Source: Syntrophales bacterium
GTDB taxonomy: Bacteria > Desulfobacterota > Syntrophia > Syntrophales > UBA2210
DNA: 64,000 nucleotides
Direction: 5' to 3'
NCBI GenBank assembly: GCA_963666365.2
Contig: CAXXNF010000001.1
Span: 704,001 to 768,000, forward strand
This document shows positions 4,899-8,723 of this stretch, piece by piece (position 1 is the first letter of the stretch; each line of letters opens with the position of its first letter). Below the pieces are notes generated by a model. That model was not told the origin of the DNA and did no database searches. It was given only the letters and a program-made list of their open reading frames with translations. Both the position numbers and the translations under genes were made by a program.

Positions 4899-4931
4899 TT
4901 GACATATAAATTTGAAGTTGTAATATACAAC
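4899..4931 (+). promoter_or_regulatory. Sigma-70-type promoter with overlapping palindromic operator for marR-hgcAB
   Basis: TTGACA 4899-4904, TAATAT 4921-4926 (16-nt spacer). Perfect inverted repeat GTTGTA-ATA-TACAAC (4917-4931) overlaps the -10. ATG follows at 4936 with no SD. Confidence 0.6.
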
Positions 4932-4935
4932 CATT

Positions 4936-5418
4936 ATGCGCAACTCGATACACTACTCCCAGGAATTGCTCTTTCTTTTGGCGGAACTTTCCCGGGCTGT
5001 GCGCTTCTGCCGACAGGACGCGGTTTTTTGCGAAGGTGTAAGCTTCACCCAGTTTCTCATCCTCGACACGATCGCTGAGGGTAAGGGTGTTACCATGACC
5101 GACCTCAACACGATTCTTTCCATTGAAAAGAGCACCGGCACGCGTCTGGTAAAACCGCTGATCGACAAAAACCTGGTGGAACGGAAGCAATCGGACAAGG
5201 ATCGGCGGACAGTCCTTTTGGAGCTGACCCAAGAGGGGATCGCAACACACAGGCGGGTATGGGATTGTTTCATCGGTTTCGCGGAAACAATAAAAAAGGA
5301 GATACCGGAAGATAAAAGCGAACAAATACGCAACGCATTAAGAATTTTTGCGCGGGCTGTGCGTACCGCATCATCGGCCTGTACCTGCTGCGATCTTTCG
5401 GAAGAATTAACACAATGA
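4936..5418 (+). CDS. MarR-family transcriptional regulator with Cys-rich C-terminus
   Basis: wHTH motifs TMTDLNTILSIEKSTGTRLVKPLIDKNLVER and DRRTVLLELTQEG; ends ACTCCDL. Confidence 0.9.
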   Translation: MRNSIHYSQELLFLLAELSRAVRFCRQDAVFCEGVSFTQFLILDTIAEGKGVTMTDLNTILSIEKSTGTRLVKPLIDKNLVERKQSDKDRRTVLLELTQEGIATHRRVWDCFIGFAETIKKEIPEDKSEQIRNALRIFARAVRTASSACTCCDLSEELTQ

Positions 5419-6602
5419 AACAATTTACAATAATAGATCCGAAGAGCCTAAAATCGGCCAATGGCGTTCCGTACATGGCGTCGGTCAACGAGAAGCCTGA
5501 ACCAACCTGAGGACCCACATGCGGGGTTCAGGTGAACCCGCTTCCACCGCCGAGGATTGATCAACCTTTTGTAGAAAAGGCTTTTGACACCGCAATAGGT
5601 TGTGTGCCTCAGGTCCTGTCATGCCTCACCTGGCGTGACCACGCAGGAACGCTTCGTGTACGATCGAACATAGGCCGTTTTCGTTATATCGTCGATCCAG
5701 GGCTTTATGCTCTGGGAACACCGGACGAAACTTCTCCCGTTCTGATAACGGCAAATTATAAATTAAGTTTTGACATCCTTCGTTCGTCTCTTCCGGAACG
5801 ACATGCCTGGATTCTTGTCCTGGACACGCGGGGAATCAACGTCTGGTGCGCCGCCGGAAAGGGCACTTTCAGTACCGAAGAGCTGGTCTGGCGGATTGCC
5901 GAAAGCGGTTTAACCAACGTGGTCTCTCATAAAAAAATCATCCTGCCGCAGCTAAGCGCCCCCGGCATTGCAGCGCATCTTGTGAAAAAGCGAAGCGGCT
6001 TTACAGTTCACTACGGACCGGTGCATGCGAAAGACCTTCCCGCCTACCTCGATGGGGGTTTGAAGGCCACGCCCGCCATGCGCCGCATGACATTCTCGCT
6101 GAGAGAACGGGCACTTTTAATACCGGTTGAACTGGCGTTGGCCCTTAAGGTCGGCTGTATCATTGCCGCAGTGTTTGTCCTTATGGGCGGTTTGGGAGGA
6201 CCAGCCCAATACTGGAACAATGTCGCACACTACGGTCTATATGCGGGACTCGCTTTTATCTGCAGCGTCCTGGCCGGAACGATTTTGATCCCCCTTTTAC
6301 TGCCCGTAATTCCGGGAAGGGCCTTTTCACTAAAGGGTATTATAGTGGGGCTGGGAATGGCATGCGCTCTGCTCCTCTTTCGGAATCCCGACATAAATGG
6401 CTGGTCGGGACTTCTGGAAACGATAGGCGTTGTCTTCTTTGTCACAGCCGTCACCGCCTACCTGGCGATGAATTTTACCGGCTCGTCAACCTACACCTCT
6501 CTCTCGGGGGTCAGAAAAGAGATGCGCTGGGCACTTCCCTTTGAAATCATCGCAGGCTCGGCAGGCTTTCTTATCTGGCTGGGCTCACGTTTTACAGCAT
6601 AG
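5415..6602 (+). CDS. hgcA: Mercury methylation corrinoid protein HgcA, with probable Sec-containing N-terminal extension (ORF track starts at GTG 5532)
   Basis: Cap-helix motif NVWCAAGK, TANYKLSFD motif, C-terminal TM helices, adjacent hgcB. ATG 5415 overlaps the marR stop (ATGA) and is in frame, with a single TGA at 5508-5510. Confidence 0.95.
5521..5541 (+). promoter_or_regulatory. Candidate bacterial SECIS hairpin
   Basis: GCGGGGTTC-AGGT-GAACCCGC stem-loop with one bulged G and a G-containing loop, starting 10 nt after the in-frame TGA. Confidence 0.6.
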
Positions 6603-6616
6603 GAGAAGTATGAAAG

Positions 6617-6898
6617 ATGGCACAACTGGCATATTTGAGAAATGTAGCCACTCTCGCTCTCAATGAGAAGAAATGCACCGGCTGCGGCGTCTGTCTCGAT
6701 GTCTGCCCCCATGAGGTGCTCGCCATGAATGGCAGTCGTCGAATCACCATTATAGATCTCGATGCCTGCATGGAATGCGGGGCCTGTATGCGCAACTGCC
6801 CTGCGGAAGCCCTTTTCGTCCAGACCGGCGTAGGATGCGCCGCGGCCGTGATCAATTCGCTTCTGGGCCTGAAAGGTTTCTGCTGCACTATCGAATGA
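6617..6898 (+). CDS. hgcB: Mercury methylation 2[4Fe-4S] ferredoxin HgcB
   Basis: CTGCGVCLDVCP and CMECGACMRNCP motifs, GVGCA, near-terminal CC; directly follows hgcA. Confidence 0.93.
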   Translation: MAQLAYLRNVATLALNEKKCTGCGVCLDVCPHEVLAMNGSRRITIIDLDACMECGACMRNCPAEALFVQTGVGCAAAVINSLLGLKGFCCTIE

Positions 6899-6968
6899 AA
6901 CGAGTGTTCGGGAAAAAAGAGAGTTAACGACTGACTGCTTCCTCACTTCGGAGCATAGGAGGAAAAGG

Positions 6969-8576
6969 ATGCATCTTCTGAACAGGTTGTCGAAAAGAGA
7001 AATCATAGGATTTATTTTTGCGATGTCTGTCCTTCTGTTGACACCTGCCATGACAATGGCGCTCGATTTCGACGGCAATTGGAACGGTTCCTGGACAAGC
7101 GTATACGGAACAACGGGAAGCGTCTACGGATCGATGTATCTGTCAGGAAACTCGGTCAGCGGGATGCTTACCATTACCAATACCGATTGCGGTACGGTGA
7201 GTCTGTCGATATCAGGGACACTGATTAACAACGTCCTTACCATAAATGGCTCAAAATATTGTGGCGGTTCGAACAACGAATTTCGTTTCACCCAGGGATA
7301 CTTCTCGGGAAGCACAATAAACGGAAACTATAACATTATCAGCGATGGGGACTTGTACGATTCAGGCGCCTTTACGCTCGTTCATCAACCTACCGCACCG
7401 ACTGCCAATTTCACGGCGAACACGACTTCCGGGATTGCCCCTCTGACAGTTACTTTTACCGATCAGAGTAGCGGTACCGTCAGCACCTACGCCTGGTCTT
7501 TCGGCGACGGACAGACAAGCACCCTGCAAAATCCCTCGCATATCTATCCGACACCGGGGACTTACACGGTCCAGCTCACAGTCAACGGGCCAGGCGGAAG
7601 TAATACCCAAACGCGCTCCGGCTATATCACCGTTACCTATCCCGCTCCGGTGGCTGGTTTCACTGTCGATACAACGACCGGCAACGCGCCTCTTCAGGTC
7701 AGTTTTACCGATCAGAGTACCGGTACCGTCAGCACCTACGCCTGGTCTTTCGGCGACGGACAGACAAGCTCTCTGCAAAATCCCTCGCATATCTATCCGA
7801 CACCGGGGACTTACACGGTCCAGCTCACAGTCAACGGGCCAGGCGGAAGTAATACCCAAACGCGCTCCGGCTATATCACCGTTACCTATCCCGCTCCGGT
7901 GGCTGGTTTCACTGTCGATACAACGACCGGCAACGCGCCTCTTCAGGTCAGCTTTACCGATCAGAGTACCGGTACCGTCAGCACCTACGCCTGGTCTTTC
8001 GGCGACGGACAGACAAGCTCTCTGAAAAATCCCTCGCATATCTATCCGACACCGGGGACTTACACGGTCCAGCTCACAGTCAACGGGCCAGGCGGAAGTA
8101 ATACCCAAACGCGCTCCGGCTATATCACCGTTACCTATCCCGCTCCGGTGGCTGGTTTCACTGTCGATACAACGACCGGCAACGCGCCTCTTCAGGTCAG
8201 CTTTACCGATCAGAGTACCGGTACCGTCAGCACCTACGCCTGGTCTTTCGGCGACGGACAGACAAGCACCCTGCAAAATCCCTCGCATACTTATCAGACA
8301 CCAGGATGGTACACGGTCCGTTTGAGTATCAGCGGACCGGGTGGAGAGGATACTGTAACCAAGGATTCCCTGATTGGAGCAGCCGATCCTTTATCGGATC
8401 TCAATGATGACGGAACAGTCGATCTGGCCGATGCATTGCTTGGGTTGAAAATTCTAAGCCGTTCCACAGTGTCGACCGGCCTTGACTCTCTTTCACAAAA
8501 AGATATTGACGGTGACAACAGGCTCGGGCTCGGGGAAACCATCCACATACTTCAATGGCTTGCAAAATTATTGTGA
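6969..8576 (+). CDS. Secreted protein with four PKD domains and a C-terminal dockerin-like domain
   Basis: Signal peptide; repeated WSFGDG...NPSHxY..PGTYTV PKD motifs; C-terminal DLNDDGTVDLAD...DIDGDNRLGLGE. Confidence 0.9.
   Translation: MHLLNRLSKREIIGFIFAMSVLLLTPAMTMALDFDGNWNGSWTSVYGTTGSVYGSMYLSGNSVSGMLTITNTDCGTVSLSISGTLINNVLTINGSKYCGGSNNEFRFTQGYFSGSTINGNYNIISDGDLYDSGAFTLVHQPTAPTANFTANTTSGIAPLTVTFTDQSSGTVSTYAWSFGDGQTSTLQNPSHIYPTPGTYTVQLTVNGPGGSNTQTRSGYITVTYPAPVAGFTVDTTTGNAPLQVSFTDQSTGTVSTYAWSFGDGQTSSLQNPSHIYPTPGTYTVQLTVNGPGGSNTQTRSGYITVTYPAPVAGFTVDTTTGNAPLQVSFTDQSTGTVSTYAWSFGDGQTSSLKNPSHIYPTPGTYTVQLTVNGPGGSNTQTRSGYITVTYPAPVAGFTVDTTTGNAPLQVSFTDQSTGTVSTYAWSFGDGQTSTLQNPSHTYQTPGWYTVRLSISGPGGEDTVTKDSLIGAADPLSDLNDDGTVDLADALLGLKILSRSTVSTGLDSLSQKDIDGDNRLGLGETIHILQWLAKLL
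7454..8289 (+). repeat. Near-identical 249-bp tandem repeats (83-aa PKD units)
   Basis: For example ACAGACAAGC recurs at 7511 and 7760; about 3.3 nearly identical copies. Confidence 0.95.
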
Positions 8577-8592: not shown

Positions 8593-8723
8593 GCACTTTC
8601 CGTACAGGCTTGTGTAGGATGCGCCGCTGCCGTAATCAATTCGCTTCTGGGTCGAAAAGGTTTCTGCTGCACTATCGGAGAAAGCGAAATAGAGTCGGAA
8701 TCCGGCGCATCTGGATGCTGCTG
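8593..8723 (+). pseudogene. Diverged orphan copy of the hgcB 3' end
   Basis: Translates ALSVQACVGCAAAVINSLLGRKGFCCTIGESEIESESGASGCC versus HgcB ALFVQTGVGCAAAVINSLLGLKGFCCTIE. Confidence 0.85.

Follow-up and report, generated by a model that had tools for sequence, protein, structure and literature searches.

Analysis of a 64,000-nt stretch of the genome of a Syntrophales bacterium (assembly GCA_963666365.2, contig CAXXNF010000001.1, positions 704,001–768,000; hereafter the window, numbered from its first nucleotide) indicated that its hgcA gene, which encodes the methylmercury-producing protein HgcA, very probably specifies a selenoprotein. Translation would start at ATG 5415, possibly at ATG 5475, and the UGA at 5508–5510 would be recoded as selenocysteine (Sec, U) by means of a hairpin just downstream, giving the form of HgcA described by Haft and Gwadz (bioRxiv 10.1101/2022.07.06.499078). 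The window adds no new principle; what is new here is a Thr-Sec motif with a Cys at +4, a sequence variant of this already described selenoprotein family.

Reading frame and codon signature of the extended hgcA

Three genes on the same strand, marR, hgcA, and hgcB, spanned positions 4936–6898. ATG 5415–5417 overlapped the TGA stop of the MarR open reading frame (ORF; 4936–5418) as ATGA, and the frame from this ATG, translated with TGA as U, read MKQFTIIDPKSLKSANGVPYMASVNEKPEPT-U-GPTCGVQVNPLPPP... and continued directly into HgcA. This confirmed the claim of an earlier note on this DNA, made from the sequence alone, that an ATG coupled to the marR stop opens a frame leading through the UGA into HgcA. 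In the same translation, MKQFTIIDPKSLKSANGVPYMASVNEKPEPT-U-GPTCGVQVNPLPPPRIDQPF..., the stretch directly after U is GPTCGVQVNPLPPPRIDQPF. The single TGA was the sole stop in the hgcA frame from ATG 5415 to 6602 (395 codons), and a second in-frame ATG, at 5475, likewise lay upstream of it. The features of the gene were as follows:

5415–6602, + strand: full-length hgcA, 395 codons including Sec32, plus the stop (translation with TGA as U; profile NF040863; AlphaFold2 model)
5415–5531, + strand: N-terminal extension, 39 codons ahead of GTG 5532, overlooked by ordinary ORF calling; predicted disordered arm
5508–5510, + strand: in-frame UGA, read as Sec32 (codon 32) in the motif P-T-U-G-P-T-C (translation, comparison of loci, alignment, contig X4)
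5520–5522, + strand: TGC codon of Cys36, the +4 Cys of U-x-x-x-C (translation with TGA as U; kept in 9 of 21 Sec sequences with a residue other than Cys before Sec)
5521–5541, + strand: hairpin of the bacterial Sec insertion sequence (SECIS) type (fold, conservation, covariation, the genome's own SECIS loops)
5532–5534, + strand: GTG taken as the hgcA start by ORF finders; SECIS loop positions 3–4 plus the first 3′ stem base

The standard hgcA gene call in this genome was thus 39 codons short and missed the Sec. A protein search with residues 1–70 against a set of 5.8 billion proteins returned three candidates, none of them significant, which tells only that gene callers stop extending at the TGA.

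The identity of the gene product was supported by a score of 433.7 bits on NF040863 (cut-off 275), with the profile covering residues 64–393, and by the adjoining hgcB. The cap-helix motif N(V/I)WCA(A/G)GK with its Co-ligating Cys was found as NVWCAAGK at residues 142–149, and N142–K149 was invariant across an alignment of 69 sequences; all 42 invariant columns of this alignment were retained in the window HgcA, with no further stop or frameshift. An AlphaFold2 model built on the same alignment (mean predicted local distance difference test score, pLDDT, 87.7; predicted template modelling score 0.82) contained five long C-terminal helices (229–257, 266–295, 304–323, 330–357, and 363–394), as expected of an HgcA C-terminal domain, where they would be five transmembrane helices. 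Residues 1–40 had pLDDT values of 37–52 in the model, which fits a disordered arm.

For comparison, 80 related hgcA loci were gathered (44–61% identity, mostly from Syntrophales and other Thermodesulfobacteriota metagenome-assembled genomes). L045 and L078 were excluded for runs of N, and 79 loci were usable, namely the window and 78 relatives. A stop codon 104–114 codons ahead of NVWCAAGK was present in 42 of the 79, and it was TGA in 41 (L082 being a doubtful member of this group), TAA in one, and TAG in none, while the nearest upstream stop in the remaining 37 loci was mixed (19 TGA, 13 TAA, and 5 TAG). Of the 69 rows of the alignment, 68 had U or C in the Sec column and one had Ser; in Cys-type homologues, this column was occupied by the second Cys of a CC or CGC pair. 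The Ser row was L050 (1444–2604), with TCA at the Sec codon; it retained the preceding Cys and an intact SECIS-type hairpin (GGCUC-AGUU-GAGCC), and its TCA is due to a recent mutation from TGA or to an error in sequencing.

An in-frame start codon was found upstream of the TGA in 41/41 TGA-type genes, and in 11 of them there was no ATG, GTG, or TTG from the TGA to the conserved QxF motif, so that translation must begin upstream in many relatives. ATG starts in relatives of the same clade lay 25–31 codons before their TGA and were accompanied by Shine-Dalgarno-like sequences of the AAGGA or GAGG type. None of 16 listed sequencing runs was of RNA. Four DNA runs were compared over the stretch, among which X3 had no contig there and X6 reached only position 5498. 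A contig from an independent metagenome of another study (X4) was 97% identical over 5300–5800 and showed zero differences over 5492–5646; since both the TGA and the hairpin were unchanged in it, the TGA is no assembly error.

The genome (4.0 Mb, 2 contigs, 94% complete) encoded the machinery needed for Sec insertion, with selB (361.5 bits), selA (608 bits), selD (382.8 bits), and tRNA-Sec (76.3 bits) all above their cut-offs. In-frame TGA codons were also present in selD, itself a selenoprotein gene (..VRGAG-U-ACKIG..), and in four paralogues of fdhA (formate dehydrogenase alpha); the selD and fdhA loci in G000 were C1:483557-484486, C2:981096, C1:230207, C2:1988696, and C2:586647. The presence of selA failed to separate Sec-type from Cys-type lineages, as it was found in 39 of 41 related genomes. 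The window hgcA thus showed a single UGA upstream of the usual start with an open frame across it, alignment of Sec with Cys, and a genome carrying selA, selB, selD, and tRNA-Sec.

The SECIS-type hairpin and the weighing of alternatives

The hairpin at 5521–5541, GCGGGGUUC AGGU GAACCCGC, begins 10 nt after the UGA, as the earlier note had described, and was recovered both in the sequence and as a local structure within a 71-nt fold. It can form a contiguous 6-bp stem (5524–5529/5534–5539) or a stem of 5 bp, a bulged G, and 3 bp, and its apical loop AGGU (5530–5533) starts about 19–20 nt after the UGA. The view that GTG 5532 is sequestered in the stem did not hold, since G5532 and U5533 are loop positions 3–4 and only G5534 is paired.

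The archetype of the bacterial SECIS is that of E. coli fdhF, and the bacterial consensus reportedly given by Zhang and Gladyshev in 2005 is a stem-loop that closely follows the UGA and whose apical loop contains G and lies at a constant distance from it. These properties were all found in the hgcA hairpin, which lies within the ORF. Among the genome's own SECIS elements, those of fdhA1 and fdhA2 had a GGUCU loop that began 19 nt after the UGA, selD had a GGU loop, and the other two fdhA paralogues had a UGG-type loop. Like that of hgcA, the fdhA and selD elements are hairpins within the ORF that follow the UGA immediately and carry GGU in a loop about 19–21 nt after it. The hgcA stem is shorter, however (6 bp contiguous, or 8 bp with a bulge, vs. 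at least 8 bp in fdhA1), and its loop is an AGGU tetraloop rather than the GGUCU pentaloop of fdhA. Across the genome, 260 of 144,315 TGA triplets (0.18%) preceded a stem of at least 6 bp with a 4–5 nt GGU loop at the hgcA distance, by a criterion set post hoc, after the hairpin had been seen.

Because the hairpin is too short for fold-energy statistics, covariation was counted instead and one hairpin definition was applied to all genes: a stem of 5 bp or more, a 3–6 nt loop with G in its first two positions, and a loop start 13–27 nt after the codon. Hairpins satisfying this definition were found in 39/41 TGA-type genes vs. 3/28 Cys-type genes, one of the three being the TCA variant L050 and the 28 including L096 through a one-column misalignment. 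The loop was at +19 in 33 of the 41 TGA-type genes. In a DNA alignment of 40 sequences, from which L082 was excluded, the stem covaried: pair 27–34 was UA in 26 sequences and CG in 12, and the covariation score was 0.278 vs. a shuffled mean of 0.176, with 0/500 shuffles reaching 0.278 and all slid controls lower. Codon +8, which is GTG in the window, was GTG or TTG in 21/41 TGA-type genes and GGC, GCA, or GAC in other species. Both this codon and the conserved peptide A/V-Q-V/L are best explained by the loop consensus A-G-G/U-U.

The checks that the earlier note had proposed, namely a search for the sel genes, the codon at the homologous position in relatives, and a comparison of the hairpin with other SECIS elements, gave, respectively, selA, selB, selD, and tRNA-Sec all present, TGA or TGC/TGT in relatives, and a hairpin that was conserved, specific to TGA-type genes, and similar to the fdhA and selD loops of the genome. 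Its claim of a selenoprotein HgcA with an N-terminal extension, a UGA, and a SECIS was supported by every check run.

Several results weighed against the selenoprotein reading. The whole 71-nt fold was no more stable than shuffled sequences (z −0.36), and 60-nt folds averaged z −0.66 in TGA-type relatives and 0.02 in Cys-type relatives. An Rfam scan of 5350–5700 at E ≤ 10 gave no family match, which weighs little, as curated models represent bacterial SECIS elements poorly. As the hairpin lies in coding sequence, its conservation could in part be that of the peptide A/V-Q-V/L; this objection is countered by the absence of the hairpin from Cys-type genes. The three differences of the X4 strain within the extension were all non-synonymous (Q3E, Y20H, and E26G), and the first 26 residues look weakly constrained. 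Moreover, the published motif CU, or PCUGP, was not found in the window, which reads PTUGP.

If the UGA were a genuine stop, which appears quite improbable, a 31-codon upstream ORF (a leader, or untranslated) would end at 5510, and a 356-residue HgcA independent of selenium would start at GTG 5532. Ordinary ORF calling yields precisely this start, no protein in the 5.8-billion set matched residues 1–70, and the G-rich stretch 5523–5526 sits 6–9 nt ahead of the GTG; yet this would-be Shine-Dalgarno sequence falls within the hairpin stem, and the GTG itself is part of the conserved SECIS loop, being replaced by GGC, GCA, or GAC elsewhere. A genuine stop would also leave the preference for one codon at this position (TGA 41, TAA 1, TAG 0), its alignment with the Cys of Cys-type homologues, and the 11/41 TGA-type genes without a start codon between the TGA and the conserved protein sequence to be accounted for. 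Decoding of UGA by SelB competes with the release factor, and it is conceivable, although unlikely, that the gene has two products: Sec would be inserted when selenium is available, and without it translation would stop at 5510, while some ribosomes would initiate or reinitiate at GTG 5532 and make a shorter HgcA that lacks the arm. This would be an elaboration of the selenoprotein reading rather than exclusive of it, with selenium supply tuning the form of the enzyme. It would agree with the GTG or TTG at codon +8 in 21/41 TGA-type genes, but these codons are accounted for by the loop consensus A-G-G/U-U, and the other 20 genes have no start at +8, including 11 with none before QxF, which rules out a family-wide design. 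Work on N-terminally His-tagged HgcA of ND132, produced in E. coli with HgcB, is relevant to both alternatives: the lysates methylate Hg, as would be expected if the UGA were a stop, and the extension status of the construct is unstated in the available part of the paper (PMC11588087). If that construct had no extension, the arm would be dispensable, as the two-product scheme assumes, and not strictly required for catalysis, which would count against the selenoprotein reading as well.

Decay of the locus, with the TGA as a nonsense mutation in a gene pair heading for loss, is hardly credible. It could draw on the lack of the terminal ..CC tail in hgcB and on the diverged 95-nt copy of the hgcB 3′ end after a PKD-repeat gene; however, the TGA and hairpin were shared by dozens of species as well as by an independent strain, hgcA had no other stop or frameshift and all 42 invariant columns intact, and HgcB scored above its cut-off and retained C74 and a CC pair four residues from the end.

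In the selenoprotein reading, translation would begin at ATG 5415 or possibly at ATG 5475, both of which include the UGA downstream, and SelB-GTP-Sec-tRNA would bind the hairpin at 5521–5541 and decode UGA 5508 as Sec. The product would be an HgcA of 395 residues, with Sec32 and Cys36 located in its flexible N-terminal arm, and the synthesis of full-length HgcA would need selenium if there is no efficient restart. As a soft ligand, the selenolate of the disordered arm could pick up Hg(II) or CH3Hg+, which would then move between the arm and the corrinoid site or the HgcB cysteines. This Hg-handling role is an inference modelled on the flexible Cys pair present in HgcB and in Mer proteins (Cooper, 2020), and the Sec arm is a published candidate for Hg(II) delivery to the methyl-corrinoid. 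Surveys of hgcA based on truncated genes, whether by primers, profiles, or abundance, would overlook the selenium requirement, which could tie selenium availability to methylation potential.

The probable Thr-Sec variant among selenoprotein HgcA

The 2022 preprint of Haft and Gwadz also has a 2023 version in J Bacteriol. According to the preprint, most HgcA proteins are selenoproteins whose CU motif precedes the start predicted earlier, and 20 of 20 genes could be extended through one UGA, with PCUGP perfectly conserved in them (10.1101/2022.07.06.499078). The Cys-Sec pair that the earlier note had mentioned for HgcA extensions was therefore correct and corresponds to this work. A 2026 review likewise gives the motif of HgcA (NF040863) as CU (PMC13188914), and a 2024 PNAS paper, in its available part, mentions only that some HgcA homologues may be selenoproteins (PMC11588087). 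The window HgcA shared with the published form the single UGA upstream of the old start, the short extension, the alignment of Sec with a Cys of CC-type proteins, the U-G-P that follows as in PCUGP, and the Sec machinery in the genome. It differed from the published PCUGP in the Thr before Sec and the Cys at +4 (P-T-U-G-P-T-C). No mention of such non-CU forms was found in the texts consulted; the HgcA alignment of Fig. S7 of Haft and Gwadz may already show them.

Cys-type HgcA with an N-terminal CC or CGC, as in most Syntrophales (e.g., Smithella and Syntrophus relatives), likewise have the reactive residue about 15 residues before DQPF, and the order marR-hgcA-hgcB was common to many loci. 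They differ in having TGC or TGT for TGA, two adjacent thiols rather than one selenol, and the hairpin in only 3/28 genes. The residue before U was Cys in 33 of the 41 TGA-type loci and another residue in eight. Genomes of the same order were searched in two sets (41, then 339); hgcA was found in 192 of the 339 and was mostly Cys-type among the matches listed.

In all, 21 TGA-type sequences with a residue other than Cys before Sec were seen, including the window. Nine had Cys at +4 (the window, L113, L023, L115, L116, L120, L136, L139, and L140), with T, N, Q, or M as the preceding residue; two had Cys at +1 (L088 and L096); and ten had no Cys within five residues (L118, L119, L126, L024, L048, L077, L132, L133, L134, and L144). 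The variant UxxxC motif put forward in the earlier note was thus present in the window, but its spacing recurred in less than half of these sequences, and slightly more of them had no nearby Cys. Some Cys-only relatives (L137, L151, and L117) retained just the +4 Cys. The constant element, about 15 residues ahead of DQPF, is thus Sec or the Cys that stands in its place, and the vicinal Cys is not constant.

The window's family was shown by these comparisons of sequence to carry a distinct hgcA lineage. The residue before Sec was Thr throughout the 11 sequences of the window's lineage in its family, except for two with Asn or Leu, and a few other Syntrophales families had Gln, Met, or Thr. In a quick tree, from which the N-terminal 49 residues were omitted, the window clustered with seven other non-CU sequences of its family at a Shimodaira–Hasegawa-like approximate likelihood ratio of 90, which is not strong support for the grouping. 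The sole other genome of the window's genus (G001) carried another hgcA lineage (L128), 49% identical, with a classic PPC-U-GP and a Geobacter-like ..VPGFIDWL.. after the motif. The differing hgcA lineages imply that hgcA was probably exchanged horizontally within the genus.

A lineage without Cys beside Sec constrains models of a Cys-Sec chelate. It is possible, although we propose it only tentatively and consider it somewhat doubtful, that the vicinal Cys is dispensable and that the arm works as a monodentate selenolate shuttle, with one soft ligand operating together with the HgcB cysteines, and not as a bidentate Cys-Sec chelator of Hg(II). If so, the U-x-x-x-C arm of the window, paired with an HgcB that lacks its terminal CC tail, could represent a compensated variant of the Hg hand-off. 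The loci offer natural variants of the arm, namely T-U-x-x-x-C, T-U without Cys, and Cys-only.

Neighbouring genes and putative promoters

The features flanking hgcA were as follows:

4899–4926, + strand: sigma-70-like promoter match TTGACA-16-TAATAT, a 10/12 consensus match only, 9 nt ahead of the marR ATG
4936–5418, + strand: MarR-family regulator gene (Pfam MarR, 48.8 bits)
6617–6898, + strand: hgcB, encoding a 93-aa dicluster ferredoxin (NF040864, 110.3 bits vs. cut-off 99)

The C-terminal tail of MarR was rich in Cys (..SSACTCCDLSEELTQ). In 31 of 98 related loci, some of the Sec type and some of the Cys type, hgcA was immediately preceded by a MarR-family homologue, a count that contains one weak match and in which L023 and L114 come from a single contig; these loci included L023, L115, L117, L118, L029, L041, and L057, and Cys-rich tails among them read ..ACTCC.., ..YTCCS, and ..CNCCK. 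A MarR gene beside hgcA has been noted in two cultured methylators (PMC10349881). The Cys tail of MarR is possibly metal-sensing, and marR-hgcAB may form a conserved unit in Syntrophales.

The match at 4899–4926 is a possible promoter of a marR-hgcA-hgcB operon, and with 9 nt between its end and the marR ATG, the marR transcript may have almost no leader. An inverted repeat (TTGTA-ATA-TACAA, 4918–4930) overlapped the −10 box of this match and is a candidate MarR operator, although with arms of 5 bp it may be due to chance. A second promoter-like match (TTAACA-16-AATAAT, 10/12) at 5407–5434 spanned ATG 5415; if used, it would give transcripts from about 5441 with a start at ATG 5475, still upstream of the UGA.

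HgcB had Cys, not Sec, at the C73-equivalent position and ended in ..GFCCTIE. A longer tail ending in ..CC was present in all seven aligned clade relatives and was missing from the window HgcB, and homology to the relatives' tail ran on past the hgcB TGA stop. A second Sec at this stop (TGA 6896, U-N-E-C) was considered and rejected: the fold contained no comparable hairpin, the relatives have Pro there, and the downstream frame lacks the CC tail. The last 95 nt of hgcB (6809–6903) were repeated with 83% identity at 8593–8687, directly after a PKD-repeat gene (6969–8576) that holds four tandem units of 249 nt (7393–8439). This hgcB fragment kept ..SGCC, followed by TGG where the relatives have their stop, and the arrangement suggests that a rearrangement inserted the PKD gene at the 3′ end of hgcB.

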